Positions 105 through 50,100 of a stretch of 62,864 nucleotides of DNA are shown piece by piece. Position numbers and translations under genes: made by a program. The notes under the pieces are model-generated. The model saw only the letters and a list, made by a program, of their open reading frames with translations. It had not been told where the DNA came from and searched no databases. Origin of the DNA: Chiloscyllium plagiosum (Eukaryota); contig NC_057757.1 of the NCBI RefSeq assembly GCF_004010195.1, forward strand, positions 834,041-896,904. Reading direction: 5' to 3'. Numbering within the stretch: the first letter of the stretch is position 1; each line of letters opens with the position of its first letter.

Positions 105-1897
105 TCAGTCTGGTAAGGGAGCTGTTGCTGTGTGGTCTCTGTGAGGAGGGACAATTGCTACAGGATCACTGTGGAGGGGGGTCATGGTTACGCAGTCACT
201 GGGGAGAGACCCTTCCTCGCCAGCACAAACCAGCAGCAGCTCCTCCGAATACACGACTGGATCAGGATCAGGATCGGGATCGGGATCGGGATCGGGGAGA
301 ATGGAGTCTCTCACCTCCACTAGCCGGCCTGTGGTCAGCTTTCCAGCCTGGAATTGGACCGAGCTACTGTTCAGCTCGGGTCCATGTGCCGGTCTTGCTG
401 ATGGTCCCTGTCTCCGGTGAGTGCCCGCTGGGTGAGGTCGGGGTGTCAGCTGGCACCGACCACTGCTGGAATTCCTGGCGGGATCTCTCTGTGCACCCAG
501 ACCAGCTGGTGCCCTGGGATCCTCACGGGAATCACCAACCAATGGGGAAGATAAGATCTGTCGGTTGTTGGTTGAGACTCTGACGGGATCCCCTCTGTCT
601 GTTTCTGGAGAGGGATTCCCTAGGAAGGCGGGAGGTGATTGGCTGAGGTGTTTTGGGGAAACCAGATCCTTTCCTTTCCGTTTATCCAATACATAATCAA
701 TGATGGCATCTGCCTCTTTGGTACCCAGGCGGTACTGGAGATGGTTTCTATTGGCCAACGTGGAGTGTAATGGGATTTTCCTCTCTTTGACAGCCAATGG
801 GATTTGGGCATGCTTTCCCTTCTCTTCAACAGCCAATGAGGGCTGGAGCTGCTTTTGCTTGCTGGCAATCGGCCAATGGGCATCCATCCTCTTCAGATCC
901 ACTGGCCATTGGACCTGTTTTGGCTTGCTGGCCTCTGGGCAATGGACAGGCTTGACCCTCTCATCAGCATCCAATAAGAAATGGACCTGTTTGACTTTGA
1001 CTTTGGTGCGCGGTGGGTAATGGGCAGGACTTTCACCGATGGCCAATGGTTGAGGGGCAAGCTTCCGAGTGACAGCCAATGGTTGATGAGTTTGCTGGTC
1101 ACCGGCAACCAGTGGATGACGGCTCTGCCTCTTCCTGTCTCGAGCAGCCAATGGCTGATGCCCATTCGCTGCCTGCCGTCTCCCCTCACGTTCCGGGCGC
1201 TCTGTGGGATCTCGGGGAGGGTTGAGGTGATTGGCTCCAGGTCCGGTAACCAAGTGGCCGAGACGATCCCGTGGGGGAGCCAATGTCCTGGTATCCCCCT
1301 GGCCTGGAGCTTGGTGTCGGAGGGGTTCCTGGCTCCTTCTACTCCGAGCCGGATGGCCGTCCGCGGATCTGGCCCGGGACCGGATCTCCCCGGGGATCCG
1401 ATTGTGTTTCCGACTCCTCGAGTGTGACTCTGAATCGGAGGCGCCTCTCCGAGTGAGGTCGGGACCTGCACTTGGACGGGAGACGGGGAGAATCCTGGAG
1501 GAATCGGACCCCTCGTCCACTCGTTCCGAACGGCGTTCCCGCTTCCGACCGGCTCCTTCCCTGGCTCTTTCTGCCGCCTGGAGCCCGTCAGTCTTCTGGG
1601 GATGGGGCATTGGCCTGGCTCCAGGAACATCCTCATTGAGGGTCTGGAATGCCTCATCGACATGACCCAGGATGCGCTCGGGAAACGGCCTACTTCCCAG
1701 TCGCTCCTGATCCCGCTGAGAAACGTTGTGGCCCCTCTCCCCTGCTCCACGCTCCGAACCCCCATCGGGGCAGCCATCCCCCTTGTACCATCCAGCATCT
1801 GCCTCCAACTCACTCCACACGAGGGGCTGGCGCGACCGCGGTCGACCGTGCCGGGGAAATTCCCGCCGCACAGGACGATCCCAGTGATCCAGTGAAT
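105..1897 (-). CDS. CCDC50-like protein, last coding exon (exon 6; long low-complexity/repetitive region, stop TGA at 105-107)
   Basis: Pyrimidine-rich acceptor (ctctctcctatctgccag) before 1897. Phase-1 junction G|AT gives D-SLDHWDRP..., in frame with the 626-aa ORF, which is open to TGA. Internal splicing cannot be excluded. Confidence 0.7.
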
Positions 1898-2035
1898 CTG
1901 GCAGATAGGAGAGAGGAGGAGAGTTATTCCTGAAACCCACCCTTGTCCTCCAAATGTTCGGAAATGATGAGGAGCAAAGTGACATTGAGGGCTCCCACCA
2001 CCCCCCCCGGCCCCTGTCCGGGGAACGTTAATTAC

Positions 2036-2138
2036 CATCATCGCTGTTCCCCGTCGTGGACTCCTTCCGATCTTCATGGTCCTCGCTATGTCGGCCCCTC
2101 TCTCTCCTCTCCAACCTCCGTGACCTGCTGCTGCTGAC
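2036..2138 (-). CDS. CCDC50-like coding exon 5 (VSSSRSRRLERRERG...GNSD)
   Basis: ttgcag acceptor and G|gtaatt donor; 103 nt, phase 0 to phase 1, linking exon 4 to the terminal exon in frame. Confidence 0.7.
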
Positions 2139-2199
2139 CTGCAAACCAAGGAGCAGAGTTTAAAACCAGAGTGATCTCTTACCCTGAATCCAACCACCA

Positions 2200-3320
2200 G
2201 TGAGGATCAGGAGCAGGAATCTTCCCTAACCCAGGGCTCACTGGGACAGTGATCAGGATTCCTGCCTAACCCAGGGCTCAATGGGACAGTGATCAGGATT
2301 CCTCCCTAACCCAGGGCTCACTGGGACAGTGATCAGGATTCCTCCCTAACCCAGGGCTCACTGAGACAGTGATCAGGAATCCTCCCTAACCCAGGGCTCA
2401 CTGGGACAGTGATCAGGAATCCCCTCTAACCCAGGGCTCACTGGGACAGTGATCAGGAATCCTCCCTAACCCAGGGCTCACTGGGACAGTGATCAGGAAT
2501 CTTCCCTAACCCAGGGCTCACTGGGACAGTGAACAGGAATCCCCCCTAACCCAGGGCTCATTGGGACAGTGATCAGGGCAGCAATCCTTCCTAATCCAGG
2601 CCTCACTGGGACAGTGATCAGGAATCCCCTCTAACCCAGGCCTCACTGGGACAGCGATCAGGAATCCTCCCTAACCCAGGGCTCACTGGGACAGTGATCA
2701 GAAATTCTCCCTAACCCAGGGCACACTGGGACAGTGATCAGGAATCCCCCTTAACCAAGGGCTCACTGGAACAGTGATCAGGAATCCCCCCTAACCCAGG
2801 CCACACTGGGACAGTGATCAGGAATCCCTGGGACAGTGATCAGGAATCCTCCCTAACCCAGGGCTCACTGGGACAGTGATCAGGAATCCCCCTAACCCAG
2901 GGCTCACTGGGACAGTGATCAGGAATCCTCCCTAACCCAGGGCTCACAGGGATAGTGATCAGGAATCTCCCCTCACACAGGGCTCACTGGGACAGTGATC
3001 AGTAATCCCCCCTCACCCAGTGCTCACTGGGACAGTGATCAGGAATGCTCCCTAACCCAGGGCTCACTGGGACAGTGATCAGGAATCTCAGACTAACCCA
3101 GGGCTCACTGGGACAGGGATCAGGAATCCTCCCTAACCCAGGCCACACTGGGACAGTGATCAGGAATCCTCCCTAACCCAGGGTTCACTGGGACAGTGAT
3201 CAGGAATCCTCCCTAACCCAGGGCTCACTGGGACAGTGATCTGAAATCCCCCCTAACCCAGGGCTCACTGGGACAGTGAGCAGGAATTCCCCCCGTAACC
3301 CAGAGCTCACTAGGACAGCG
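2200..3320. repeat. Minisatellite, ~40-bp unit (CCTCCCTAACCCAGGGCTCACTGGGACAGTGATCAGGAAT), in a CCDC50-like intron
   Basis: More than 20 near-identical tandem units. Confidence 0.95.
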
Positions 3321-3589
3321 ATGGGAAGGTATAATCAGGTCCTGTCCTCTAGCACCAGCACTGCCTATCACACAGACAAGACCAGCAGGGGCTCAGGGAG
3401 AACACATGGTCAATCCTTGCCAAAACATTATTAGCTGGGAGTGACCCTGCACGTGCCCAAAAAGATTGTGTGTTCAAGGTGCATTCCAGGGATCCGAGCA
3501 CAAATCCAGACAGACTGTCCCAGTGTCAGACTGAGTAACACACCACGACCAGGGGATCATACTGTGCACACTTTCAGAATATGGGGTCA

Positions 3590-3720
3590 ACACTGGGGGA
3601 GCACTTGCACTGTCAGAGGGTCAGTGCAGACTTAGTGCCGCACTGTCGGAGGGTCAGCGCTGAGGGAGCGCCGCACTGTCGGAGGGTCAGCGCTGAGGGA
3701 GCGCCGCACTGTCGGAGCAG
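3590..3720. repeat. Short run of the ~31-bp GCACTGTCGGAGGGTCAGTGCTGAGGGAG satellite
   Basis: Same unit as at 13.2 kb and 26.5 kb. Confidence 0.85.
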
Positions 3721-4052
3721 CTGTTTTTCAGATGTGAACACGACCCTGAGATGAGGTCCACTTTCCGAGGTGAGTGTTGAAGATCTGAAGGCACTATTGA
3801 GGAAGGGATGGTGAGTTCACACCCACGACCTGGGGCTAACCATTGACACTTTAGCTAATTGTCCTAAAAACAGGTGAGCGGGATCATTGGCACACCACAA
3901 TCTTTGGGATTCAGCCGTACACAAACATGCTGCTGATATTGCTGGTGAGCGCACTGCCTTGTGTTGACATGTCCTTATGTTGGGGATGGTGCTACAGAAT
4001 TCTAGAGTCTGACCTCGAGCACTCCGGCCCCAATGGTTGGTGATAATCTCAC

Positions 4053-4143
4053 CTCTGTGTGCAGGAGCCTCTGATGTTGGCTGGCTTCCTTTTGCTGTTG
4101 TTCCTCCTGGATTGTCTGGGGATAATCACTCTGCATGTTCTGA
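4053..4143 (-). CDS. CCDC50-like coding exon 4 (QNMQSDYPQTIQEEQQQKEASQHQRLLHTE)
   Basis: tttttcctggacag acceptor and GAG|gtgaga donor; 91 nt, phase 2 to 0; Q/E-rich coiled-coil-like sequence. Confidence 0.75.
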
Positions 4144-4760
4144 CTGTCCAGGAAAAAGGCACGGGTTAAAATTCCCTCATGGCCCACAGACACGACACCG
4201 AGCTCTAACGAGATCGTTGTGCCCCTCACAGTGGAAGGGCTGTGTGCTTCCTGGTGACTACTGTAGAAACTCACCAAGGCTCCTTCCAAATCCATCACCA
4301 CTTCCATCTAGGAGGACATGGGCAGCAGATCCATGGGAACACCACCCCCTGAGAGCTCCGCTCTGAAACACTCACCATCCTGACCTAAAAACCAGGAGCA
4401 GGAGTAGGCCGTCCGGCCCTTTGAACCTGCTCCGCCATTTCCATAAGATCATGGTTGATCTCTTCATGGCCTCAGCTCCACTTAGCCGCCCTCTCACCAT
4501 ATCCCTTAACTCCTTTATTGTTCAAAAAAAAATCTACCTTAGCTTTAAAAACATTTACTGAAGTAGGGTTCAACTACTTCACTGGGCAAGGAATTCCACA
4601 GGTTAACAGCTCTCTGGGTGATGATGTTCCTTCTCAATTCAGTCTGAAATCTGCTCCCTCTAATCTGGAGGCTATTGTACTAGTTTCACTGCTTCTCTAC
4701 TTCCACCTTACCGATTCCCTTCATAATTTTATATGTTTCTGTAAGATTCCCCCTCATTTT

Positions 4761-5035
4761 TAGATTAGATTACTTACAGTGTGGAAACAGGCCCCTCGGC
4801 CCACCAGGTCCCTCCGAAGAGCAACCCACCCATACCCCTACACCTAACACTAAGGGCAATTTAGCATGACCAATTCACCTAACCTGCACATTTTTGGACT
4901 GTGGGAGTAAACCAGACAAAACCCACGCAGACACGGGGAGAATGTGCAAACTCCACACAGACAGTCACCTGAGGCGGGAATTGAACCCAGGTCTCTGGCG
5001 CTGTGAGGCAGCAGTGCTAACCACTGTGCCACCGT
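4761..5035 (-). mobile_element. tRNA-derived V-SINE (HE1-like)
   Basis: A/B-box head GGTGGCACAGTGGTTAGC...GGTTCAATTCC, V-domain TGTGTGGAGTTTGCACATTCTCCCC, and (TCTAA)n-like tail. Confidence 0.85.
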
Positions 5036-5039
5036 GTAT

Positions 5040-7400
5040 TCCAATGAATACAATCCCAGTCTACTCAACCTCTCCTCAAAAGCCAACCCCCTCAGCTCCC
5101 AGAATCAAGCTAGTGAACCCCCTCTGCACCTTCTCCAGCACCAGTACATCAATCATTTCTCAAGTAAGGAGACCAAATCTGCACACTGTACTCCAGATGT
5201 GGCCTGACCAGCACCTTGTACAGCTGTAACATTACCTCTCTGCTTTTAAACTCAACCCCTTTAGCAATGAAGGACAACATTCCATTTGCCTTCCTAATTA
5301 CTTGTTGTACCTGCAGACCAACCTTCTGCGATTCATGCACAAGGACACCCAGGTCCCTCTGCACAGCAGCATGCTGCAATGTTTTACCATTCAAGTAATA
5401 ATCTGTTTTACTGTTACCCCTACCAAAAAGTATGACTTCACATTTACTAACATTGTATTCCATCTGCCAGACCTTTGCCAACTCACTCAATATATCTATG
5501 TTCCTGTACAAAGTTTCGCAGTCCCCTGCACACTTTGCTCTGCCACGCATCTTCGTGTCATCGGCAAATTTTGACACCGTACGTGTGGTCCCCAATTCCA
5601 AATCATCTATATAACTTACAAATAATTGTGGTCCCAACACCGATCCCTGAGGCACACCACTAGTCACTGATTGCCATCCAGGATCGCACTCATTTATCCC
5701 CACTCTTTGCTTTCCATCAATCAACCAATCCTCTAACACGCTAATATTCTATCCCTAACACCATGCACCCTTATCTTATGCAGCAGCTTTATGTGTGACA
5801 CCTTGTCAAAGGCCTTTTGGAAATCTAGGTACACCACCTCCACTGGGTCCCCATTAGCCACCTTGCTTGAAATGTCTTCATAGAATTCCAAAAGTTTGTG
5901 AAGCATGACCTGCCCTCATGAACCCATATGGTGTCTGTACAATGGGACAATTTTTATTGAGATGCCTTGCTAGTTCTCCTTGATAATAGACTCAAGCATC
6001 TTCCCCACTACAGATGTTATGCTCACTGGTCAATAATTCCCCATGTTTTGTCTACTTTCCTTTTTAAACAGTGGTGTCACATTTGCTATTTACCAATCTG
6101 TTGGAACTGCGTCAGAGTCCAGTGAATGTTGGAAAATTACCACCAGTCCATCTGCTATTTCTCCTGCCATTTCTTTTAGTACCCTGGGATGCATTCCATC
6201 AGGGCTAGGAGACTTATCTATCCTTAGATCCATTAACTTACCCAACACTAGCTCTTTCTTAATAATGATTATTTCCAGGCCCTCACCTACATTCATCTCT
6301 TTGTCACTTACTGGCACGTTATTAGTATCCTCCACCAATGCAAGCACCTGTTCAATACCTCAGCCATTTCATCATATTCCATAACTAACTGCACTTTCTC
6401 ATCCTCTAATGGGCCAACATTAAGATGAGATGAGATTAGATTCTCTACAGTGTGGAAACAGGCCCTTCAGCCCAACAAGTCCACACCGACCCTCTGAAGA
6501 GCAACCCACCCAGACCCATTCCCCTACATTTACCCCTTCACCTTACACTATGGGACAATTTCCCATGTAATCTGCACATCTTTGGACTGTGGGAGGAAAT
6601 TGGAGCACCCGGAGGAAACCCACGCAGACACTGGGAGAATGTGCAAACTCCACACAGTCAGTTGCCTGAGGCAGGGATTGAACCTGGGTCCCCTGGCGCT
6701 GTGAGGCAGCAGGGCTAACCACTGAGCCACCGTGCCACCCCATTTACTTTCGCCAGTCTTCTTTTTTTTATATATAACTTTTGCGATCGGTCTTTATAAT
6801 TCAGTGCTAGTTTTTTTTTCTCATGTTGGATCTTACGTTTCTTTAAAGCTCTTTTTGTGGCTTTCTGTTGACCTTTAAAGTTTTCCCAACCTTCTAGTTT
6901 TCCGCTGATCTTGGCCACTGTATCTGCCTCCTCTCTCACTTTGATAGTCTCCCTTATTTCCTTCACCACCCGGGGCGGATTACCCCTTTTCTTACACTCC
7001 TTCCTTTTCACTGGAATATACTTTTGCTGAGCACTTTGAAAAATTGCTTGGAAAGTCCTCCACTGGTATTCCTCCATAAAATCTTTCTTTCCAGTCTACT
7101 TTAGTCAAGCCCTCCCTCATTCTAATGCAGTTCCCCTTGTTTAAGCACAGGACCTTGGTATTGGATTTTTATCCTCACACTCTCCATCTGTATTCTAAAT
7201 TCAATCACTCCATCCAAGAGGATCCCTTACTGTGAGGTCATTAATTATTCCAATCCTCATGACACAGGACCAGATCTAGGACAGCTTGCTCCCTCGTCGG
7301 TTCCATTACACACTGTTCAAGAAAACTATCACAGCCACACTCAATGAGCTCCTCCTCAAGGCTACCCTGACTGAGCTGGTTCGACCAATCAACATGCAGG
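5040..7400 (-). mobile_element. Degenerate CR1-clade LINE ORF2 (RT) remnant, with a SINE inserted at about 6430-6740
   Basis: GVPQGSVLGP, SKFADDTK, KSPSPDGMHPRVLKE and LVRPHLEY motifs in broken frames. Confidence 0.9.
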
Positions 7401-7439
7401 TTTCACAAGGAGAATCCCAGAACCTGGCACCCAGGCAGC

Positions 7440-8903: not shown

Positions 8904-9033
8904 GTGTATTTGTGCAGCTTCCATCGGAGTTGCCTGCTCCTCTCATCCTCCTGCTCCTGCAGTTTCCTTGCCAGCTCGAGATTGAGGCGAACCCCCTGGC
9001 TCTTCAGTTTGTTGGCGGAGAGATGCTGCTGAA
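8904..9033 (-). CDS. CCDC50-like coding exon 3 (IQQHLSANKLKSQGVRLNLELARKLQEQEDERSRQLRWKLHKYT)
   Basis: attacag acceptor and AC|gtgagg donor; resembles CCDC50 [29 protein letters not shown]. Confidence 0.85.
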
Positions 9034-9753: not shown

Positions 9754-9816
9754 TCTCTTGCTCCTGTAGCACATGGGCCACTGTTTGATCTTCCAGAACC
9801 TGGAATTTTTGGCACA
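9754..9816 (-). CDS. CCDC50-like coding exon 2 (VCQKFQVLEDQTVAHVLQEQE)
   Basis: ttgcag acceptor and A|gtgagt donor; 63 nt; closely matches the CCDC50 N-terminal motif [21 protein letters not shown]. Confidence 0.88.
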
Positions 9817-10472: not shown

Positions 10473-10512
10473 CGTCTTGGACTCGATTCTGTCCCATCTC
10501 CCCATTCTCCAT
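10473..10512 (-). CDS. CCDC50-like first coding exon (MENGEMGQNRVQD)
   Basis: ctatcag acceptor (exon starts 10518), ATG at 10512, G|gtaaga donor; phase 1 joins to VCQKF. Confidence 0.7.
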
Positions 10513-11469
10513 CAAGTCCTGATAGCCGCCAAAGGATTAACAGGAAGGTGAGGGCTCATTGCATGGTGACAGTCTGTCCAATCCAGCTACAAGATCAATA
10601 CTGATCAGATAGCCTGGATCAACTCACTGCCCTCGTCTCAGTCAAATGACCCGAAATACCGAAGGGGTCACCAACACTAATAACAATTCAGTCAGTTCTG
10701 TTTCCTGTAGTTTATAGTAAGGTTAGGTTAATGCATAGTTAAGTGACCAAATGCTCAGTTATTGGCATTCAGTTGGAGTTACTGAAGTTAGTATTTTCTT
10801 GATTTAGTTACTACATTTCAATAAGTTACTGCAGCTGAGGTTTGGTTATTCACTGCAAGTTAGTTTCGCTGGCTATATTCCATCTTGTACTTTATTTCTG
10901 TAGATTACTGATTCACATGCCAGCATTAAGAGATCAATCATTCATGATTCGGTACCGGAGTTTGATCAGTTACGACAACTTAATAACTCAGAATTAATTT
11001 TAACAGCTTGATAACATCTACCAGCAGGTTAGTTACTGTCACTAAAAACTGGATTGGTTAATTCTAGTTTAATGAAGAATTCCAACAACAAAATAACTAA
11101 ATGGTTCCAATCCTTCGATTTGTCAGTGATTTCATGATTGGATCAAAGTAACCAAAGGTTTAGTGACAAATTCCAGCAGTTTGATCGGTTCCACTAGTTG
11201 AGCGATTAGTTAGTGATGCCAAGCTGTAGTTTAACAATTAGTTTAGTTAGTTTAGTTAGTTAGAGTTGAATTAGTGACAGTGGGAGGTAAATCAGTTCTG
11301 AGGAGGGAGGGGGGTGATTGGGAAACATTTCTCTGTGTCCACACAGACGCTGCTGTTTCTCCAGGTAACCTCCTGGTTTGCAGTTACTTTCAGGGTTGTT
11401 TTTGTAGCTGGTTATCCCCCGGGTTGGCTCAGCTCCCCAGGATCACTGAGGAAACCTCTTGCTGCAGGT

Positions 11470-12570
11470 GAAGGCCGGGTTCCTGCGGTTTATCCGACGC
11501 CGAGGCTCGGCTCCGGCTCCGGCTCCTTCCCGTGTCCCTGGGCCGGGTTTCTCGCTGTCTCCGTACCCGCCCCTCGGTGTGAGGATCCTCTGCCTCGGCC
11601 CTGAGGCCTCTCACTCCGAGCCTGAGCGGAAGGCCTCACCTGCGGGAGGGGGGCGGGGCTAGTGTCAGGACTCCACCGGAACGGGGGCGGGGCAGGAATG
11701 AAGGGGCGGGGCAGGAATGAAAGGGCGGGGCNNNNNNNNNNNNNNNNNNNNNNNNNNNNNNNNNNNNNNNNNNNNNNNNNNNNNNNNNNNNNNNNNNNNN
11801 NNNNNNNNNNNNNNNNNNNNNNNNNNNNNNNNNNNNNNNNNNNNNNNNNNNNNNNNNNNNNNNNNNNNNNNNNNNNNNNNNNNNNNNNNNNNNNNNNNNN
11901 NNNNNNNNNNNNNNNNNNNNNNNNNNNNNNNNNNNNNNNNNNNNNNNNNNNNNNNNNNNNNNNNNNNNNNNNNNNNNNNNNNNNNNNNNNNNNNNNNNNN
12001 NNNNNNNNNNNNNNNNNNNNNNNNNNNNNNNNNNNNNNNNNNNNNNNNNNNNNNNNNNNNNNNNNNNNNNNNNNNNNNNNNNNNNNNNNNNNNNNNNNNN
12101 NNNNNNNNNNNNNNNNNNNNNNNNNNNNNNNNNNNNNNNNNNNNNNNNNNNNNNNNNNNNNNNNNNNNNNNNNNNNNNNNNNNNNNNNNNNNNNNNNNNN
12201 NNNNNNNNNNNNNNNNNNNNNNNNNNNNNNNNNNNNNNNNNNNNNNNNNNNNNNNNNNNNNNNNNNNNNNNNNNNNNNNNNNNNNNNNNNNNNNNNNNNN
12301 NNNNNNNNNNNNNNNNNNNNNNNNNNNNNNNNNNNNNNNNNNNNNNNNNNNNNNNNNNNNNNNNNNNNNNNNNNNNNNNNNNNNNNNNNNNNNNNNNNNN
12401 NNNNNNNNNNNNNNNNGCTAATATCGGGGCGGGGGCTAGACTGGGGGGGCGGGGCTGGTGTCGGGGGGGTGCGCGACTGTAAGGGGCGGGGTTAGCATTG
12501 AGGGCGTGGTCACCATCAGTGGGCGGGGCCCGTGCCTGTGGGCGGAGACCAGTCGCGGGACGCGGTCTTT
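11470..12570 (-). promoter_or_regulatory. CpG/GC-box-rich promoter and probable non-coding first exon of the CCDC50-like gene (interrupted by an N-gap)
   Basis: High CpG density, many GGGGCGGGG (Sp1-type) boxes, and a minus-strand CAG|gtgagg donor at 11640/11639. Confidence 0.6.
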
Positions 12571-13224
12571 TTAAAATTAAAGTCCCATTTATTCTTGAAA
12601 ATGTACAATAAATCTGGATAAATTAACATGAAACCGGTCTTTTGAGTTTATTTTCTGCACAGACGTAACCTGAACAGCAGCATTTCAAAGTTTAATACGT
12701 TTGTAAAGCTACTATAGGACAGTAAAAGTTTACATTTAAATTAATTTTTGCTTTAAAATAAATTCCCCCTCCCCAGCAACTTCCCCAGGTCTTCCCTGTA
12801 ATTCCAGTCCCCCCCCACCCCATCGCTGTAACCATTCCTGTGAAACTTGTCCACGCTCTTTCCAATAACTTCACACCGAGTGTGACAGAGAGGATCAGCA
12901 TTACAAACAGAAAAGAGAGATTTCCTGGATTATGGTCTTTATTCTACATCAACATTCATATTAGTCACAGCTGACACCAGGATGAAAAGACCCACTCTCA
13001 ACCCAGCTAGAGACCGCAGGCCGAGAGGTACAGCTGTCAATCCGATGCAGCGTCCGTCCTCCACAACAACTTGCATTTATGTAGCACTTTAATACCAGAA
13101 AGCATACCCAGGCTCCCTCACAGGACCGAAAATCAGTCAACCACTTGATGTGCACACAGAAAATCAGATATAACCGGGCATACGATGCAATTCCCCAATG
13201 CAGAAACATCATATTGGTTGACAG

Positions 13225-17295: not shown

Positions 17296-17653
17296 CTGAC
17301 TCTGGGTAGTTTCTTTCGGAGCGATTTTTTGATTCAATCTCCCCTTTGTATTGTTTGCTCTGGCCCTCCCACCCTCACTGACGCCCCCCCCCCCACGCCA
17401 CCTCACACCCACCCACCCCTGAGAGTGTTCGGGAGTAGGGGTATGTAGCCTTCGCATCAGCTGATGGGTGGGATCACTCTGTGAGCCCCCTCACCCATCG
17501 AGGTAGCAAAACCATCTCGAGAAATGTGGGACACTCGAAAAGACTGTGCAATCCCATCTCAGTATATTGGCACAGGACTGGTCCTCAGGAGCTGAGTAAC
17601 CGGGAAAGGGGGTACAAAGAGGGGTCGGGGAAAGGGGGGGGGCATTAACTCAC

Positions 17654-17720
17654 CAACCAGACCCTCCTGTGGAGTAAGGATGGGCCTCCAATGTGATCCA
17701 GCGGGGTCAATATTCTCCGC
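17654..17720 (-). CDS. Osteocrin-like precursor coding exon 3 (RRILTPLDHIGGPSLLHRRVWL)
   Basis: tttctacag acceptor, phase 2 entry, TTG|gtgagt donor (read-through would add VS* ending 17645); resembles OSTN RRFGIPMDRIG. Confidence 0.8.
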
Positions 17721-17989
17721 CTGTAGAAACACATAAAGGATGAACAAAATGTTCAGCGTCATCCAGCCCTCTGATTCCAATTGATATAATTGTTCCCCAG
17801 CCCCAGCACCCAATTCCAGACCTGCCCCTTGAATTTCCAACTGTGCATCCAAGCCAGCACCAAGACTACCTCCCTCTATCATCGCCCCTTCGGCCCCTCT
17901 GGATTCTACTGTCATCAGCCAGTATCCCACCCTCCGTAAACTGTCTCATCCCAGGGACTGGACAGACTGGAGTTGTTTCCCCTGGACCA

Positions 17990-19440: not shown

Positions 19441-20016
19441 CTACCTCTGTGTGTATACCTCTATGACTCTATGAACAGGGGGCATAGATTGAAGATACGA
19501 AGCAGAGGGTTTAGCGGGGAGGTGAGGGGGTGCGGGGAATCTGGAATTCTGTAGGAGTGGGAGAGGCAGAAACACTCATCACACCACGGAAGGGTTTGGA
19601 TGTGTCCTTGTGATGCCCAGTGCTGTGAATGGGGACTGTAATAGTGACCAGTACAGGGCTCAGTGGGCCAAAGGGTGTCTTCTGCGCTGTTGACCTCTAT
19701 CACTTTTCTTTATCACTGCAAGGTATGGCAGTCCCGAATAAATCCAACAGTGTAACACCTTTCCCTGGAGACTGAGGAGCTCACTCTCACGGGGAGTGGC
19801 TGGATTGTGGTGGGAGTGGGGGTGGGGTGATGACATGGGCGATGCTCAAGTGGGACAGCACAGATGGGCCAAATGGCCTGTTTCTGTGCTGGAGATTCTC
19901 AGTGGGGGGTTGGGATGTTATACTGAGGAACCCCGCCCCCCCTCCCGCCATGGGCAGGTTCTCCTGGCAGTCTGACAGAGCAGACGAGAGGTATGGGGAA
20001 AGAGAGAGGGCCTCAC

Positions 20017-20219
20017 CGAGGAGCTGGGCGGTCACCGTGGATCAGCCGTTTCTCCGAGAAAATCCGATCCAGGGGCCTTCCGAAGTTGGGAAGCAGGGAT
20101 GCTCTGGCCCCTCGCTGTTCACCCACTGACTCTGAGAAACCGGCTGTGTCCAGGTAATCATCATCGTCAGCAAATCGCACACTGGACCTGGAGTCACCTA
20201 CATCCAAAGGAACTGGGGC
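20017..20219 (-). CDS. Osteocrin-like precursor coding exon 2 (APVPLDVG...RGARASLLPNFGRPLDRIFSEKRLIHGDRPAP)
   Basis: gcag acceptor and CG|gtgagg donor; 203 nt, phase 0 to 2; FGRPLDRI resembles OSTN FGSPLDRL and the natriuretic peptide core FG..xDRI. Confidence 0.85.
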
Positions 20220-20299
20220 CTGCTCGTAGAATGACACCATCATGAGCAGCAGAGAAAACAGCTCGAGAGCAAAACACATCTCTCTCCTTCACCTTCTCT

Positions 20300-21070
20300 A
20301 TCTCACTCTCCCTCTCCCCATCCCTCGCTCCATTGATCTCACTCTCTCTCCCCATCCCTCTCTCCATTTATCTCACCCCCTCTCCCCATCCCTCGCTCCA
20401 TTGATCTCACTCTCTCTCCCCATCCCTCTCTCCATTTATCTCACCCCCTCTCCCCATCCCTCGCTCCATTGATCTCACTCTCTCTCCCCATCCCTCTCTC
20501 CATTTATCTCACCCCCTCTCCCCATCCCTCGCTCCATTGATCTCACTCTCTCTCCCCATCCCTCTCTCCATTTATCTCACCCCCTCTCCCCATCCCTCGC
20601 TCCATTGATCTCACTCTCTCTCCCCATCCCTCTCTCCATTTATCTCACCCCCTCTCCCCATCCCTCGCTCCATTGATCTCACTCTCTCTCCCCATCCCTC
20701 TCTCCATTTATCTCACCCCCTCTCCCCATCCCTCGCTCCATTGATCTCACTCTCTCTCCCCATCCCTCTCTCCATTTATCTCACCCCCTCTCCCCATCCC
20801 TCGCTCCATTGATCTCACTCTCTCTCCCCATCCCTCTCTCCATTTATCTCACCCCCTCTCCCCATCCCTCGCTCCATTGATCTCACTCTCTCTCCCCATC
20901 CCTCTCTCCATTTATCTCACCCCCTCTCCCCATCCCTCGCTCCATTGATCTCACTCTCTCTCCCCATCCCTCTCTCCATTTATCTCACCCCCTCTCCCCA
21001 TCCCTCGCTCCATTGATCTCACTCTCTCTCCCCATCCCTCTCTCCATTTATCTCACCCCCTCTCCCCATC
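20300..21070. repeat. Pyrimidine-rich minisatellite, 68-bp unit (dimer of ~34 bp), in the intron between osteocrin-like coding exons 1 and 2
   Basis: About 11 near-perfect tandem copies. Confidence 0.95.
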
Positions 21071-21233: not shown

Positions 21234-21326
21234 CTGTGCCTGGGCTGTGTTCAGTACGAACCCTAGGCTTGGCTGCAGGAGCAGGAGCAGGAGCAGATTC
21301 TGAGCGATGGCCTGACTCAGGAACAT
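21234..21326 (-). CDS. Osteocrin-like precursor coding exon 1, signal peptide (MFLSQAIAQNLLLLLLLQPSLGFVLNTAQAQ)
   Basis: gtacag|ATG acceptor and CAG|gtacgt donor; 93 nt; Leu7 hydrophobic core followed by a PSLG cleavage-like region. Confidence 0.85.
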
Positions 21327-26519: not shown

Positions 26520-28280
26520 ACAGGATCAGTACTGAGAGAGTGTTGCACTGTCAGAGGGTCAGTGCTGAGGCAGTGTGACACTGTCAGAGGGTTAGTGCTG
26601 AGGCAGTGTGACACTGTCAGAGGGTCAGTGCTGAGGCAGTGTGACACTGTCAGAGGGTCAGTGCTGAGGGAGTGGGCACTGTCAGAGGGTCAGTGCTGAG
26701 GCAGTGTGACACTGTCGCAGGGTCAGTGCTGAGGCAGTGTGACACTGTCGGAGGGTCAGTGCTGAGGCAGTGTGACACTGTCAGAGGGTCAGTGCTGAGG
26801 GAGTGTTGCACTGTCAGAGGGTCAGTGCTGAGGCAGTGTGATGCTGATGGAGGGTCAGTGCTGAGGGAGTGTGACACTGTCGGAGGATCAGTGCTGAGGG
26901 AGTGTGACACTGTCGGAGGGTCAGTACTGAGAGAGTGCTGCACTGTCAGAGGGTCAGTGCTGAGGCAGTGTGACACTGTCAGAGGGTCAGTGCTGAGGGA
27001 GTGGGCACTGTCAGAGGGTCAGTGCTGAGGGAGTGCTGCACTGTCAGAGGGTCAGTGCTGAGGGAGTGGGCACGGTCAGAAAGTCAGCGCTGAGGGAGCA
27101 CTGCACTGTCGGAGGGTCAGCACTGAGGGAGTGCTGCACTGTCGGAGGGTGAGCGCTGAAGGAGTGCTGCACTGTCGGAGGGTCAGCGCTGAGGGAGTGC
27201 TGCACTGTCGGAGGGTGAGTGCTGAGGGGGTGTGACACTGTCAGAGAGTCAGTGCTGAGGGAGCACCGCACTGTTGGAGGGTCAGTGCTTAGGGAGCGCC
27301 GCACTGTTGGAGTGTCAGTGCTAAGGGAGCGCCGCACTGTTGGAGTGTCAGTGCTAAGGGAGCGTCACATTGTCGAAGGTCAGTGCTGAGGTAGCACCGC
27401 ACTTTCAAAGGATCAGTGCTTAGGGAGTGCTGCACTATTGGAGAGTCAGTGCTGAGGGAGTGTTGCACTGTCGTAGGGTCAGCGCTGAGGGAGTGCCGCA
27501 CTGTTGGAGGGTCAGCGCTGGGAGAGCACGCACTATCGGAGGGTTAGTGCTGAGGGAGTGCTACACTGTCAGTGGGTTAGTGCTGAGGAAGTGGGCACTG
27601 TCGGTGGGTTAGTGCTGAGGAAGTGGGCACTGTCGGAGGGTCAGTGCTGAGGGAGCACCGCACTGTCGGAGAGTCAGTGCTGAGGGAGCGCCGCACAGTT
27701 GGAGGGTCAGTGCTAAGGGAGTGGGAAGTGTCAAAGGGTCAGTGCTGAGGCAGTGGGCACTGTAGGGGATCAGGGCTGAGGGACTGTACACTGTTGGAGA
27801 GTCAGTGGTCATGGAGTGCCGCACTGTCGGAGGGTCAGTGCTGAGGGAGTGGGCACTGTCGGAGAGTCAGTGCTGAGGGAGCGCCGCACTGTCTGAGGAT
27901 CAGTGCTGAGGGAGCGCCGCACTGTCTGAGGATCAGTGTTTAGATGGGCCGCACGGTTGGAGGATCAGTGCTGAGGGAGCGCCGCACTGTTGGAGGGTCA
28001 GCGCTGGGAGAGCGGGCTCTATCGGAGGGTTAATGTTGAGGGATCGTCGCACTGACGGAGGAGGCACTGTCGGAGGGTCAGTGCTGAGGGAGCGGCGCAC
28101 TGTCAGAGGGTCAGTGCTGAGGGAGCGGCGCACTGTCAGAGGGTCAGTGCTGAGGGAGCGGCGCACTGTCTGAGGGTCAGTGCTGAGGGAGTGCCGCACT
28201 GTCGGAGGGTCAGTGCTGAGGGAGCGGCGCACTGTTGGAGAGTCAGCGCTGAGGGACTGTCGCACTGTTGGAGGGTCAAG
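26520..28280. repeat. Large ~31-bp satellite array
   Basis: More than 50 tandem degenerate units. Confidence 0.95.
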
Positions 28281-33550: not shown

Positions 33551-33750
33551 TCAGGGAACTTTTTTCCGGCTTGAGTTTGACTTCTTCCCATCTCGGCATC
33601 TCTCGCAGAAAAAGACGTCAGGGACTTTAGACTTGCGGATTTTAGCACAGGACAGGTGGATCCAGGTGTTGCACTGGTTACACTCAATCATCGGCCTGCC
33701 CGCAAACGGCTTCTGGCAGTAACAGGTCACCAGGCTCCAAGAGTCATCAT
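33551..33750 (-). CDS. PHF23: PHD finger protein 23, exon 5 (PHD finger, stop)
   Basis: [51 protein letters not shown] is a C4HC3 PHD finger typical of PHF23/PHF13; gttgtag acceptor. Confidence 0.93.
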
Positions 33751-35614: not shown

Positions 35615-36191
35615 CTGATTCCACCATGATGTCTTCGTCCATGATGCGTGTCTCGCCTTCACTGGAGCTGCTGCCCCCGTCTCGGCTGTTTCCCACACTG
35701 AGCGAGTCTTTGATTTCCATTTGATAACTCTCACTATAAACACCCTCCGGATCTGGCCTCAGAGGCTCGGGGAGAAAGTTCCCTTTCACCAGCTCTTCGT
35801 CCGAGTCGGTCTCACTCAGCGAGGCCTTGACTTTCTTCTCCGCTCTCTCTTTCTTCAGCTTGCGTTTCTTCCTCCTCTTGATCCGGGAGAAGGTGGACTT
35901 CTCGCCATCCAGGGGCCTCAGCTGCTCCGCCTCAGAGGGCCAGTGCTTGCTCCTCTTCTCCTTCTTTTCCTCCGGGGCTGGGTACAAGGAATCCTTGAGC
36001 TTCAGCCTGTCCAGGAGCACCCCGTCCGGTCTCAGGGGATGGAACCCATTCCTCCTGGAGCTGCTCGCCTTCTTCACAAAATTCTGGATGGTGTCAAAGT
36101 CAACAGACTGGGTGGAGTCCCAGCTGTCACTGTCCAAAACACTCTCTGTCGGCACTGGGGAATTTGAACTTGATGGCGTCCAGTCACACTC
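35615..36191 (-). CDS. PHF23: PHF23 exon 4 (ECDW...DSDSWDS...IQNFVKKA...RIKRRKKRKLKK...SSSEGETRIMDEDIMVES)
   Basis: tctcacag acceptor and G|gttagt donor; 577 nt; PHF23-type motifs (FVKKA, LKDSL, MDEDIMVES). Confidence 0.92.
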
Positions 36192-36384
36192 CTGTGAGAA
36201 TTTGAGGGAGAGAGGAGTCACATTGAGTTTTTTCCCCCTCAGTATTGGCCCTGCACTTCAATGTTAATTAACCTCCGTTCCCTTAGAACCCAAAAGTCCC
36301 AACCTTCCCAGCCTCAAAGACTGAGCTGTATAGAACTCCATGTTTTCCACCCACACTCAGTCAGTGTTGCCTTCCTTTTTAGAA

Positions 36385-42989: not shown

Positions 42990-43082
42990 CTCTCTGCAGG
43001 GCGGAATGTAGCCAGTGTACGCCAGAACAAAGTTACAGAACTGATTGAAGTCCTCCACTGTACGCTTCCGTTTCTCAGCTGG
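42990..43082 (-). CDS. PHF23: PHF23 exon 3 ([31 protein letters not shown])
   Basis: ttgcag acceptor and GAG|gtgagc donor; 93 nt; conserved PHF13/PHF23 N-terminal motif. Confidence 0.93.
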
Positions 43083-43769: not shown

Positions 43770-43801
43770 CTGAGAGTCTGCTCCGACAGTTTGCAATGGA
43801 T
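43770..43801 (-). CDS. PHF23: PHF23 micro-exon 2 (DPLQTVGADSQ)
   Basis: ttttctttggctttcag acceptor and CAG|gtgagt donor; 32 nt converts phase 1 to phase 0 exactly as needed. Confidence 0.8.
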
Positions 43802-44389
43802 CTGAAAGCCAAAGAAAACCAAGTTAGAGAACTGCAGATTCAGGGCTTTCCTGACAATGGCACTCACTCCCATAAAGCAATCCATTTAATCCAACATCCT
43901 TGTACTACTCTCGACCTCAGATGGCAGACTTCTTCTGCTGCACCACCACCGCGCCCCCTCCAACGTCCCCAGAAAACAGTCCATGCTCTTATCACCCACT
44001 CACACTTCAACCATCGATTCTAGGGAACGTTTATCTCTCATCGGCCCAACTGTCACAGCAACCAGTGTCCCGCTCTCAACCCTCTCCCACTCTGTATTTC
44101 TCACTCTCCAACATGTTCCACTACGAAACACTGGCTTAATGGGTAGCGGATATGCCTGAGTCATAGTTATTCAGCACAGAAACATGGCCATGCCATTTGT
44201 CAGCACTTGGCCCATATCCCTCTAAACCCTTCCTGTTCATATTCCCATCCAGATGCCTTCTCTATTTACCCTAACCATGTCCCTAATGATTTTATAAAGC
44301 ATTATAAGGTCACCAGTCAGCATCTGATGATCCAGGGAAAATAGCTTAGGGTGGGCACAGAGTGAGTGCACACTGGGGGGGGGAGAACA

Positions 44390-45140
44390 GAGGGAGCGCT
44401 GCACTGTGGGGTGCGGGGGCAGCGAGGGAGCGCTGCACTGTGGGGTGCGGGGGCAGCGAGGGAGCGCTGCACTGTGGGGTGCGGGGGCAGCGCCGCACTG
44501 CGGGCTGCGGGGGCAGCGCCGCACTGCGGGCTGCGGGGGCAGCGAGGGAGCGCCGCACTGCGGGCTGCGGGGGCAGCGAGGGAGCGCCGCACTGCGGGCT
44601 GCGGGGGCAGCGAGGGAGCACCGCACTGCGGGGTGCGGGGGCAGCGAGGGAGCGCCGCACTGCGGGCTGCGGGGGCAGCGAGGGAGCACCGCACTGCGGG
44701 GTGCGGGGGCAGCGAGGGAGCGCCGCACTGCGGGCTGCGGGGGCAGCGAGGGAGCACCGCACTGCGGGGTGCGGGGGCAGCGAGGGAGCGCCGCACTGCG
44801 GGGTGCAGGGGCAGCGAGGGAGCGCCGCACTGCGGGCTGCGGGGGCAGCGAGGGAGCGCCGCACTGCGGGCTGCGGGGGCAGCGAGGGAGCACCGCACTG
44901 CGGGGTGCGGGGGCAGCGAGGGAGCGCCGCACTGCGGGCTGCGGGGGCAGCGAGGGAGCACCGCACTGCGGGGTGCGGGGGCAGCGAGGGAGCGCCGCAC
45001 TGCGGGCTGCGGGGGCAGCGAGGGAGCACCGCACTGCGGGGTGCGGGGGCAGCGAGGGAGCGCCGCACTGCGGGCTGCGGGGGCAGCGAGGGAGCACCGC
45101 ACTGCGGGGTGCGGGGGCAGCGAGGGAGCGCCGCACTGCG
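44390..45140. repeat. Very GC/CpG-rich 31-bp tandem repeat (GCAGCGAGGGAGCGCCGCACTGCGGGCTGCGGGG family)
   Basis: More than 20 tandem units; related to the 31-bp satellite elsewhere in the window. Confidence 0.92.
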
Positions 45141-46940
45141 GGACATATCGCAGAGAGACCAGGCCGACATACCGCCCAGAGACTGGGTTTACTTACTGCA
45201 GAGAGACCAGGCAGACATATTGCAGAGAGACCGGGCTGACTTACTGCCCAGCGACTGGGCAGACATACCGCCCAGAGACCGGAATAACATACCGCAGAGA
45301 GACCAGGCTGACATACCGCCCAGAGACCGGCTCACATACCACAGAATGACCAGGCTGATATACTGCTGAGAGACCGGGCTGATGTACCGCTGACAGACGG
45401 GGCTGACATATTGCTGAGAGACCGGGGTGTTATATTGCTGAGAGACTGGACTGACAGACCGCTGACAGACTGGGCTGACTTACCGCAGAGACCGGGCTGA
45501 CATATTGCAGAGAGACTGAGCTGACATACCGCCCAGCGACCGGGCTGACAGACCGCCCAGAGAGAGGAATAACATACCGCAGAGAGCGGGCAGACATACC
45601 GCCCAGAGACCGAACTGATATACCGCAGAGAGACTGGGCTGACATACCGCACAGAGACCGTACTGACATACCACCCAGAGACTGAAATGACATACCGCAC
45701 AGAGACCGGGCTGACATACTGCACAGAGACCGGATTGCCATACCGCACAGAGACTGGGCTCACACGCCGCAGAGAGACCGGACTGCCATACCGTACAGAG
45801 ATCGTGCTTACAAACTGCCCTGAGACCAGGCTGACATACTACAGAGAGACAAAGCTGACATACTGCAGAGAGACCGGGCCGACATACAGCCGAGAGACCG
45901 GGCTGACATACTGCAGAGAGATCGGGCTGATATACCACAGTGAGACCATCCTGACGTTCCGCCTAGAGACTGGGCTGACATTCCGCAGAGAGACTGGGCT
46001 GACATACCGGACAGAGAGCGGGCTGACATATCGCACAGAGACTGGGCTGTCATACCGCACAGAGACCGGGTTGACATATTGCAGAGAGACCGGCCTGAAA
46101 TACCGCTTAGAGGCTGGGTTGACATACAGCAGAGAGACCGGACAGATATACCACAGGGAGACCGGGCTGGCATACTGCAGGCAGACCTGGCTGACATACC
46201 GCCCAGAGACCGGGCTGACATACCGCAGACAAACCGGGCTGATATACCGCCGTGAGACCAGGCTGTCATATCGCAGAGAGACCGGGCTGACATACCTCAG
46301 AGAGACCGGGCCGACATACAACCCAGAGACCAGGCTGACATACCACAGAGAGACAAAGCTGACATACCGCAGAGAGACCGGGTTGACATACTGCACAGAC
46401 CAGGCTGACATACTGCAGAGAGACCGGGCCGACATACAGCAGAGAGACCAGGCAGATATACCACAGGGAGCCGGGCTGGCATACCGCAGGCAGACCAGGC
46501 TAACATACCGCCCAGAGACCAGGCCGACATACCGCAGACAAACCGGGCTGATATATCGTCGTGAGACCAAGCTGGCATATCGCAGAGAGACCTGGCTGAC
46601 ATACCTCAGAGAGACCGGGCCGACATACAATCCAGAGACCGGGTTGACATACCGCACAGAGACCGGCTGACATACTGCAGAGAGACTGGGCCCACATACT
46701 GTAAAGAGATCGGGCTGACATACCGCCCAAAGACCATGGTGACATACCGCAGAGAGACCGGGCTGACATACTGCCGAGAGACCGCGCAGACATACCGCTG
46801 ATAGACTGGGCTGACATACCGCAGAGAGACCGGGCAGACTTACCGCACAGAGAGCAGGCCGACATACAGCCCAGAGACTGGGCTGATATACTGCAGAGTG
46901 ACCGGGCTGACATACCGCAGAGAGACCAGGCTGACATATT
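45140..46940. repeat. 24-bp minisatellite (CTGACATACCGCAGAGAGACCGGG)
   Basis: Dozens of degenerate tandem units; translates as TYRRETGL repeats. Confidence 0.92.
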
Positions 46941-47459
46941 ATAATTTGTCTGCTCACTGAATATGGGGATTTTTTTCAATTTTGTGCCCCTGTTTTAATG
47001 TCGTCCGCTCATGATGAAGAGATGTTGCTTTTCACTGAGTCAGAGTCAGCGATACTCAGCAGAGAAAATTGGCAAAACATAACATGAAATAAACATTCTG
47101 AAAATGATAGCTAGGCAGAGTTTAAAAGTGACACAATATTAGTGTCCTTGGGTATTACAGAAAACAACTCTTCACTCATAGTCATCAACAGTCAAACATG
47201 ATTTTTTTTTAGGCTGTTATTGCTAGATTGGAGATTGTCTGAGTTAAACATTGATGCAAATTCTGTTTTTCAGCAAAATTGCATTTAATCTGTCAGAAGC
47301 TAAGAAATTTTACTGTGTTCTCATTAACTTCTGTCACAATCTGCGATATGCAATTAGAGAGATTGATATTCATTGCATAACCTCAAGCTGAACTTTTTCT
47401 ATCTTTTCTACAAGTTTGTTCTCCCAATCGCGCTCTCCTATGCCATTAGGCTTTGATTC

Positions 47460-47790
47460 ATTGAATCCCGACAATGAAAAAGGGTCCATTTGGCTCATTG
47501 AGTCTGCATCAACCCTGTGAAGAGCAACCCCCCAAGACCCAGCTCCCCTCAACCGTTCCCCATAACCCTGCATTTCTCCAAGGCTAATCCACCCAGCCTG
47601 CACATCCCTGGACACTGCAGACAACCTGTATATCTTTGTACTATGGTAGGAAACTGGAGAACCCAGCAGAAACCCACGTAGGCATGGGAAGATTATACAA
47701 ATTCTACATAGACAGCTACCCAAGGCTGGAATCCAACCTGGGTCCCTGGCATTGTGAAGCTGCAGTGCTAACCATTGAGCCACCATGCTG
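47460..47790 (-). mobile_element. Degenerate V-SINE
   Basis: tRNA-like head at about 47720-47790 and a diverged V-domain. Confidence 0.7.
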
Positions 47791-49129
47791 CCCCAATCCC
47801 ACAAAATTCTTCTGTGCCTTGATAGCTTACTGTACTTTCTGGAAGAATGGGAGTGTAATTGGCAAAGGAGAGAACAGTAACATGCCACAGATAGCAGAGA
47901 CCCTGACCATGCCAGGACTTTGGATCTTCTGAAGACCCTTGCAAGAGTCCAGGTTTCTTACAATGTCTTTACAAAGATCGTATTGACACTGCTTTTATCT
48001 CCTTGAATACTGAAGATGGAGGGGTTTAATGACTTGGTGAAGTGGCAGATGAATCCAGAACAAGAGGGTTTGCAGTAAATGTAGAGCCAGAGCCATTCAG
48101 AGGTAATGTCTGGAAACACTCCCTCATACAATGGGAGGTTGGACATCTGCAACTCCCTCTCGCAAGCAGCTCTGACTGTTGGAGATTAATGAAATTGCTC
48201 CAATGTGAAATTCATAGATTTCTATTATTAATAGGCATTATGAGTTTGGGAACCAAGATATGTGGAAAGAGGGAGGTGATGACCTAGTGGTATTATTACT
48301 AGACTGTTAATCCAGAGACCCAGGTAATGTTCTGGGGATTGGATTTGAATCCCACAATGGTAGATGGTTGAATTTGAATTCAATGAAAATCTGGAATGAA
48401 CTGCCTAATGATGATCATGAATCTATTGTCAATTTTCAAGACAAACCGATGTGATTCACTAACGTCCTTCAGGGAAGGAGACTGCCATCCTTATCTGGTC
48501 TGGACTACATGGTTTGCCTGACCCACAACTATGTGGTTGACTCTTAACTGCCTTCAGGGATGGCCTAGCCAGTGATGCCCTCACCCTGTGAATGAATGAA
48601 AATCAAACATGATTTCATCAAAGAGTGGAACACGATCAATGTGCAGAATGACCTCCTCCTGCTTCTAAATAATGGAAGATCTAAGTGTGTAAACAAACAT
48701 AGCAATTAATAGACAAATATAAAAGAAGCAATGTCTTGCATTTATATTGTGCCTTTTACAGTCAACAAATGAACCAAAGTGCTTTACTGGTCACAGATAT
48801 AATAGAGGTAGCACCACGAATAAAAATGTTTGAATTCATCTCTTCAGTAGGCACATAATGCAATGTTAATAGAGTTGTTGACTTTCCCAGAGATCAATAT
48901 CTGTCAATGAGTTGACAATAGATCCAGCCATGAGGTGGGGAAAATCCACAGAGATGGAGAGACTTGAGAACCAAAAATCCAAGGTCACCTTCCCCTCACA
49001 AGTGTTTCTCTATGTTATGTACCAAATTACTGAGATACTGGATATCAAAACATTATTATCTGAAAGAAACCAATCTAATTTTTATTTGAAATATTTTGAA
49101 TTCAAAACCCTACCATTTCTGAATTCAAC

Positions 49130-50100
49130 ACCTCCCCCTCACCCCCCCGCCCCCCCCCCCCCCCCCCCCCGAGTGTACCCCCCCCCACCCCCCGGGACTC
49201 CCTCTGGGGGTCGGTCTCTCTCCCCCCTCCCCCTCCCCGGGGTCTCCCTGCCCCCCGGGGCACGGGCTCGGTGATGTTGATGAAGACTCTCTCACCCTCC
49301 GCCATCTTCAGCATCGCCGCCGCCGCCGAGAACCGACTCCTCCTCCTCACGGACACGCGCACCGACCCTCTCCCCCGCGCGCGCCCCCGCTCGCCGGCCG
49401 CACTCGATGCCACGAGGACGCGCTTTCCACCGCCCGCAACAAACACACTCTCTGCCTTTCCCGGCGCGCGCTCCTCCCTCACCGTCACGTGTTTCCCCCC
49501 TTTTCCCGGGAGCGCGCGCTCGCCCCACCACCAACCCCCCTCCTCCGCGGGGGCGTGCCCGCCTCTCGCGCCCTTTTTCCCCTCGGGACGTTTTTTTTTC
49601 GCACACTCCGCCCTTCCAGTGACGCAAGACACCAGCACGGAGCAACGCAGGAGTGGGGGGGGGGCTTCCTCCTCCTCATTCAAAGCAAAAAGCGGCTTCT
49701 TCATCTCATCTCCCTGCCGTCACGTTGAATACCCTTTATAATAATAATGTTCACTTTCTAATTGTATAAACGCATGAAGAAAAGTCCTCGAAGCTTTCGA
49801 TTTGTTTCAACCTAAACCTTGATATTCCTGCCCCCCCCCCCACTATTCCTCTGCTTTGGATTACTCCAGCTTCAAAGGCCAAGGTCGTTTCGTCAGAGCG
49901 TACTTTTTTTCAGCGCGCAGCGACGTGGGGCGTGCTTACGTCATCACACGGGGGCGGGGAAGCGCGCCTATGTCATGCACAATGCGCCTACGCATACGCA
50001 GTAATGCGTCATCGCGTCAGGTTGGACGTACAGTAGTAGGTTGGTAGAAGAAATCGCCGCCATGTTGGTAATGGAGCTGGACCAAGTTGGCACATCAGGT
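49130..50100. promoter_or_regulatory. CpG-island promoter of PHF23, probably bidirectional
   Basis: CpG-rich; CRE/ATF-like TTACGTCA and TGCGTCA, GC box, and YY1-like CCGCCATGTT at about 50057-50066. Confidence 0.7.
49296..49314 (-). CDS. PHF23: PHF23 exon 1 coding part (MLKMAE)
   Basis: ATG preceded by a GCG repeat in the CpG island; G|gtgaga donor; resembles human MLEAMAE. Confidence 0.8.

Follow-up and report, generated by a model that had tools for sequence, protein, structure and literature searches.

A PHF23-linked block of OSTN-like and CCDC50-like genes in the shark Chiloscyllium plagiosum: a probable retained ohnolog segment with a candidate second osteocrin gene

In the human genome, OSTN, encoding the hormone osteocrin of bone and muscle, lies upstream of CCDC50, with UTS2B between them. 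The two genes have counterparts in the same order in a stretch of 62,864 nucleotides from the shark Chiloscyllium plagiosum (NC_057757.1, positions 834,041 to 896,904; hereafter the window), where three genes follow one another on the minus strand as PHF23 > OSTN-like > CCDC50-like. This order on one strand had been read from the letters alone in a first-pass annotation, and exon models, all on the minus strand, bore it out. The locus raises the question of whether sharks kept a second copy of the OSTN-CCDC50 pair beside PHF23. On balance, we favor the interpretation that this segment descends from the ancestral OSTN-CCDC50 neighborhood as a retained ohnolog on the PHF23 chromosome, with a second osteocrin-type peptide gene. 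The duplicate copies are likely to stem from the early vertebrate genome duplications, as the paired linkage of PHF and CCDC50 genes suggests, and the hormone-like copy appears undescribed. The window itself is cartilaginous-fish DNA with fragments of the long interspersed nuclear element (LINE) type, tandem arrays, and five N gaps, and its proteins are nearest to those of Chiloscyllium.

The CCDC50-like gene was modeled as six exons, from 10512 to 315, that chain in phase:

10473..10512, minus strand: coding exon 1 (12/13 to P0002)
9754..9816, minus strand: exon 2 (Pfam CCDC50_N, E-value 1.7e-5)
8904..9033, minus strand: exon 3 (Pfam CCDC50_N, E-value 9e-5)
4053..4143, minus strand: exon 4; relatives align on to 4011, likely a second donor
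2036..2138, minus strand: exon 5, from exon chaining and the alignment of relatives
315..1897, minus strand: large low-complexity exon with a donor at 314; the open frame continues to a stop at 105

Position 105 had been taken as the end of the gene, which was not borne out: the alignment with relatives stops at 315, at a GT donor. Because the relatives continue past this donor, the gene runs off the left edge of the window and its last exons lie outside. Exons 2 and 3 singly scored 25.5 and 23.1 bits, under the curated CCDC50_N cut-off of 27, and the domain exceeded this cut-off in all five full-length relatives scanned (51–87 bits). The large exon retrieved six relatives (8000 candidates), all from elasmobranchs and none named CCDC50, five of which contained CCDC50_N.

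When 1.84 billion representatives were searched with a CCDC50 profile, 110 matched, and 16 of the new ones were named by look-up. The resulting tree comprised 82 rows; 33 partial, fused, or near-duplicate rows were left out of 108 new ones. Canonical CCDC50 (type 1) formed a clade with support of 99/97 that included Callorhinchus, Heterodontus, Stegostoma, and Rhincodon. The clade of the window gene (type 3) was supported at 100/100 and stood on a long branch, apart from type 1 in all trees. Type 2 was a loose third group of skates, Heptranchias, lungfish, and amphibians, with which many unnamed rows fell. The window gene is thus almost certainly a paralog distinct from canonical CCDC50, as had been proposed, in an elasmobranch clade of its own linked to PHF23. 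An extra shark copy had also been foreseen correctly, and the number of vertebrate types is three rather than two. Judging from the sequences, the type 1/type 2 duplication is older than the split of sharks and bony fishes.

Among 39 rows hand-picked with the sequence ends in view, a DPTF motif and a C..Q tail were present in 0/14 type 1, 0/6 type 3, 13/13 type 2, and 6/6 outgroup (lamprey and invertebrate-like) proteins, and at one position types 1 and 3 both carry a leucine, in contrast to the tyrosine of every type 2 and outgroup row. Type 3 resembles type 1 in having CCDC50_N without the DPTF motif or C..Q tail, in an AQ-DEE motif located about 60–75 residues from the end in relatives, and in its exon phases, 1-1-2-0-1, which we take to be those of human CCDC50. 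It differs from type 1 in its different chromosome record, its length of 700–920 residues, a low-complexity exon of about 530 residues, and a domain match that mostly ends near model position 102–115 of 127. Type 2 (Xenopus MGC84185; labeled CCDC50-like, CCDC187, or trichohyalin-like) likewise has CCDC50_N and occurs in elasmobranchs; unlike type 3, it carries DPTF and the C..Q tail as in lamprey and invertebrate proteins, lies on the PHF13 record, and is retained in bony vertebrates. This bony-vertebrate gene was considered as the ortholog of the window gene; its linkage and its C-terminal motifs spoke against that, whereas the tree did not rule it out.

The PHF23 model, with five GT-AG exons spanning 49314–33551, encodes 306 residues and shows 0 differences from P0020, a protein named PHF23B in Chiloscyllium punctatum:

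49296..49314, minus strand: exon 1, with the start codon and a phase-1 donor; model identical to P0020
43770..43801, minus strand: exon 2 (tblastn 11/11; AG/GT)
42990..43082, minus strand: exon 3, from exon chaining and the alignment of relatives
35615..36191, minus strand: exon 4, from the alignment of relatives and splice sites
33551..33750, minus strand: exon 5, PHD finger and stop (Pfam PHD, E-value 1.4e-8; 100% to P0020)

No usable ESM Atlas match was obtained for exon 4. A tree of 36 rows, taken from 120 listed matches (660 in total) and including no mammal, separated PHF23 from PHF13 at 100/99, with sharks and bony vertebrates in each clade. The window row fell inside the PHF23 clade together with tetrapod and teleost PHF23, in a tree that also included P0020, which confirmed the earlier identification of this gene. 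As read from this tree, the PHF13/PHF23 duplication is older than the shark/bony-fish split.

Synteny was then read indirectly, from the longest-record length and the accession numbers of protein matches; equal record length means the same chromosome or scaffold, not adjacency. RefSeq accession numbers generally follow genomic position. Type 3 and PHF23 had the same record length in all six species in which both were seen in one assembly, namely C. punctatum, Rhincodon, Carcharodon, Cetorhinus (a 238,718-base record), Hypanus, and Narcine; Hemiscyllium and S. torazame stood outside this count, PHF23 not having been seen in the same assembly. The two accessions were within 3 numbers of each other in three (C. 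punctatum, Cetorhinus, and Hypanus) of the five species for which both accessions were available and came from different series in Rhincodon. Type 2 and PHF13 had a common record in both testable species (Rhinoraja and Heptranchias), and type 2 was not on the PHF23 record in Amblyraja, Xenopus, Pleurodeles, and Protopterus. In Rhincodon, type 1 was located on a 73.1 Mb record (73,097,125 bases), and another record, of 11.05 Mb (11,054,923 bases), carried both type 3 and PHF23; this separation establishes paralogy within one genome, and a canonical CCDC50 elsewhere in a shark genome, which the first-pass annotation had expected, was thereby found. The Rhincodon type 1 model has no N-domain, and its C-terminus matches Stegostoma CCDC50. 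Genome duplication should leave paralogs in pairs on chromosomes that are themselves paired, and the proposed origin rests on this PHF/CCDC50 linkage, with the reservation that the linkage counts are not independent because the species are related.

Several further observations were made on these two families. The proteins P0264, P0265, P0203, P0149, and P0216 represent a C..Q-tailed (prenylation-type) CCDC50 paralog that occurs widely in vertebrates other than mammals and is labeled misleadingly (CCDC187, trichohyalin-like, and MGC84185), with no mammal among the named rows. The stingray type 3 protein P0007 contains about nine tandem 11-residue repeats, degenerate versions of which occur in the same region in sharks. 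The stretch at 11640–12600 resembles a promoter: it is rich in GC boxes, contains a 19-base repeat and a gap of 685 bases, lies about 1.2–2 kb upstream of the start of the CCDC50-like gene, and may include a non-coding first exon of that gene. P0041, an unnamed tetrapod model that groups with turtle PHF23, fuses a GABARAP-type N-terminus (PF02991) to PHF23 and shows the adjacency of GABARAP and PHF23 in that genome. P0123 and P0046 are shark PHF13 orthologs labeled MDC1-like or uncharacterized. On the 238,718-base record of Cetorhinus, one accession (XP_078391834.1) lies between PHF23 and type 3 and could represent either an isoform or the OSTN-like gene.

Between these two genes lies the small OSTN-like gene, for which three coding exons were modeled:

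21234..21326, minus strand: coding exon 1, signal-peptide-like, with an AG acceptor directly before the ATG and a phase-0 donor
20017..20219, minus strand: exon 2, with an acidic pro-region, RxxR, motif 1 (FGRPLDRI), and a phase-2 donor; the unspliced frame stops at 20013
17654..17720, minus strand: exon 3, with degenerate motif 2 (ILTPLDHIG) after basic residues and a phase-0 donor

Together, they form 121 codons with GT-AG introns and without a stop or a cysteine. In simple scans, the leucine-rich hydrophobic core of exon 1 peaked at 2.39 at residue 11, and RxxR was located at residue 67; no KKKR was present in the model. Exon 3, which adds a second motif to the gene as first described, was predicted before read mapping, one of the 54 listed downstream phase-2 acceptors opening this motif. 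Candidates for a fourth exon were listed and none was chosen; the frame seems to continue. The intron phases are presumably those of human OSTN. Across 120,100 six-frame positions, each motif was found a single time, where 0.0008 and 0.0006 occurrences were expected; these figures flatter the match because the patterns were fixed after the sequence had been seen. Compared by eye, as peptides without an alignment score or tree, motif 1 matched the first motif of human osteocrin at 6/7 core positions (PMC6838683, supplement), and motif 2 kept the basic pair, P, L/M, D, I, and G of the human and chicken second motif (PMC6838683, PMC11591550).

Four sequencing runs (X1, X5, X17, and X19), none on record as RNA and X1 regarded as RNA by guess, were mapped to a stretch that excludes OSTN-like exon 1. 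An X1 contig of 333 bases, at a depth of 3.1 and with one mismatch, matched 20016–20222, that is, exon 2 from edge to edge. The X1 depth in 17604–17803 equaled 67 covered bases (16 + 51) at a depth of 3.1, as expected for exon 3, and the depth was zero in the unique intron bins 17804–17903, 19604–19803, and 19904–20003. From the exon edges and the depth, the contig was deduced to be a spliced exon 2-exon 3 transcript fragment. Its remaining 15 bases before and about 44 after are consistent with exon 1 and a fourth exon.

Osteocrin (musclin; Pfam Musclin) resembles the OSTN-like product in the lack of cysteines and, as far as the shark features are predicted, in a signal-like N-terminus, a basic site before the first motif, and two putative natriuretic-type motifs, and both genes stand upstream of a CCDC50-family gene. 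The sizes are similar: 121 codons plus a short unseen tail in the shark versus 130 residues in the mouse (PMC12803823). Two receptor-binding domains are an osteocrin trait (PMC11591550), and osteocrin, which is processed at basic residues and is devoid of the cysteines that form a ring (PMC12803823), binds the clearance receptor NPR-C, slows natriuretic-peptide clearance, and raises guanylyl-cyclase signaling (PMC8575949). The shark gene differs in having RxxR instead of KKKR, a motif spacing of 25 instead of 29 residues, an apparent fourth exon, and a location on the PHF23 record, and in its altered motif 2 and lack of a Pfam match. The gene is very probably an osteocrin homolog and, with less confidence, makes a working peptide; it is probably weakly expressed and would probably encode an NPR-C ligand. 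The earlier OSTN-like call fits the signal-like exon, the lack of cysteines, and the two putative motifs, and profile searches did not support it. A neighboring peptide family offers a comparison: the urotensin II quartet (UII, URP, URP1, and URP2), attributed to two genome duplications, includes copies that fishes retained and tetrapods lost (PMC4364556), and Xenopus uts2b lies close to ccdc50 (PMC4319907).

The following results weigh against a retained ohnolog with a second osteocrin. Among the named matches, type 3 was seen in sharks and rays only (8 species), and no single genome was seen with all three CCDC50 types. The 82-row tree set type 3 inside type 2 at 93/87, and the diagnostic columns were split 5 versus 5 between a type 1 and a type 2 affinity. 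Approximately unbiased (AU) tests on an N-domain alignment of only 122 columns gave p values of 0.40 and 0.37 for type 3 with type 1, 0.49 and 0.41 with type 2, 0.07–0.15 when nested with shark type 1, and 0.34–0.42 with shark type 2, rejecting no placement, shark-only duplications included. A sister relationship of types 1 and 3 would fit human 3q and 17p13, which we take to be sister paralogous regions. Of the proposed ohnolog segment, PHF23 orthology, CCDC50 paralogy, and conserved linkage stand, and the date of the duplication does not follow from these tests; likewise, the gene trees separated PHF23 and the CCDC50 paralog without placing type 3. The type 3 and PHF23 accessions of Carcharodon are 316 apart, and those of C. 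punctatum run from PHF23 to type 3 with no protein between. No OSTN protein was returned by any search, which leaves the canonical shark OSTN without a match. For the OSTN-like gene, 0 Pfam families, Musclin included, were found with single exons or P0001, the full three-exon protein not being part of the scan; exon 2 gave no usable ESM Atlas match and only two chance methane-monooxygenase matches in a PDB sequence search. Its sole relative, 1 among 3 candidates of 50–160 residues, is in Chiloscyllium: C. punctatum chiPu_0029489, a GenBank model built on exon 2 and intron codons, 94% identical in exon 2. No urotensin-type motif was detected by a motif scan in the sequenced part of the window, in which five N gaps remain, a difference from the urotensin II neighborhood.

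These results leave room for other explanations. The block may have the same ancestry with the OSTN-like gene being a decaying relic, or upstream exons read through into the CCDC50-like transcript, without a useful peptide. This would agree with the signal at a depth of 3.1 in one of the four runs (X5, X17, and X19 had no depth on the exons, which is no proof of silence), the roughly 44 contig bases unplaced beyond exon 3, the lack of a RefSeq-type protein in the other sharks searched, and a motif 2 that has lost F, G, and R. Exon 2 also differs from C. punctatum by 4 changes in 67 residues, compared with 0 in the 21 codons upstream, 20 of them intronic. All 4 changes, however, precede the RxxR site and motif 1, 121 codons are open over three GT-AG exons with a leucine-rich start, and, given how old jawed vertebrates are, the motifs would hardly have stayed recognizable in the absence of selection; we consider a relic or read-through, the main rival, unlikely. 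Even less likely is a later segmental duplication specific to cartilaginous fishes that placed OSTN and CCDC50 beside PHF23, followed by fast divergence. The sighting of type 3 in elasmobranchs only and the unrejected nesting with shark type 1 or type 2 speak for it, but the copy would have had to land by chance beside a paralog of PHF13, itself linked to type 2, and nesting in shark type 1 costs 11–14 log-likelihood units.

Two readings question the identity of the genes. The small gene could be a natriuretic peptide gene without its cysteines or an unrelated secreted peptide, given that no Musclin profile matched and that osteocrin motifs resemble the receptor-binding regions of natriuretic peptides (PMC11591550). 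This is very improbable: the two motifs lie on different exons and both have the osteocrin-type proline, the gene shares its strand with a CCDC50 paralog that directly follows it, and no PDB chain matched exon 3 or the exon 2 tail at E-values up to 10. The other reading, in which the canonical OSTN-CCDC50 locus moved beside PHF23 or a third PHF13/23 paralog, drew on the PHD finger, which alone is nearer to human PHF13 (100.9 and 97 bits) than to human PHF23 (90.2), a result for which the PHF tree was built. The grouping of the gene with tetrapod and teleost PHF23 in that tree and the location of canonical CCDC50 in Rhincodon, Stegostoma, and Heterodontus, on other and larger records, make it extremely improbable, and for CCDC50 it is largely refuted.

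Beyond 49,800, no flanking gene was recognized (150 of 153 unique-sequence open reading frames (ORFs), no Pfam match above cut-off), another point against the retained-ohnolog interpretation, and no DVL2-, GABARAP-, or TP53-type flank genes were recognized within the window. A motif scan of the sequence outside the five N gaps detected no GABARAP-type exons. At 10,600–33,500, 150 of 283 unique ORFs were scanned with Pfam, and from these and the set beyond 49,800 only a reverse-transcriptase fragment passed the cut-off. Upstream of PHF23, within 49800–62864, a CpG-rich stretch is followed by 13 kb without a Pfam match above cut-off. Tandem arrays lie at 20299–21070 (68 bases), 26522–28278 (33), 44390–46938 (34 and 24), and 56511–57901 (74); the 68- and 74-base arrays are 99% homogeneous, and long ORFs at 44237–46994 are artefacts of tandem repeats.

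Under the retained-ohnolog interpretation, the early vertebrate genome duplications would have left copies of OSTN and CCDC50 beside PHF23, and type 3 and the second OSTN would later have been lost in bony vertebrates. The OSTN-like product would be a secreted, cysteine-free propeptide cut at RxxR before motif 1. Its osteocrin-like anatomy implies that it should act via motif 1: the C-terminal piece may bind NPR-C through this intact motif, the second motif site probably being weak, and such binding would slow the clearance of C-type natriuretic peptide (CNP), as osteocrin does. Type 3 is presumably a cytosolic coiled-coil adaptor that evolves fast; it would have retained the N-domain and, close to the C-terminus, a single AQ-DEE-type motif, the prenylation-type tail having been lost.

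Osteocrin has been treated as a single-copy gene, and CCDC50 is also known as a single copy in humans. A cichlid prohormone survey reports one OSTN (PMC4992253). No literature on second osteocrin or CCDC50 paralogs was found in listings and the starts of abstracts, and CCDC50 or OSTN paralogs may already appear in synteny figures by Parmentier and Tostivint. That sharks retain ohnologs is well known; the new elements are the family members. CCDC50 has three paralogs in vertebrates, two of which are obscured by wrong or empty names in databases, and the candidate second osteocrin is the member chiefly worth following. Our judgement is evenly poised on whether an additional osteocrin-type hormone gene, as yet unannotated, survives in sharks from the genome duplications and was lost in bony vertebrates. 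With one intact and one altered receptor-binding motif, it would supply cartilaginous fishes with one more regulator of the clearance of natriuretic peptides, or with a ligand of new receptor choice. If so, the shark paralog would show that OSTN and its CCDC50 linkage predate the genome duplications, provide a candidate extra hormone for the CNP system of a fish whose skeleton is cartilage, and serve as a natural experiment on the motif responsible for NPR-C binding.

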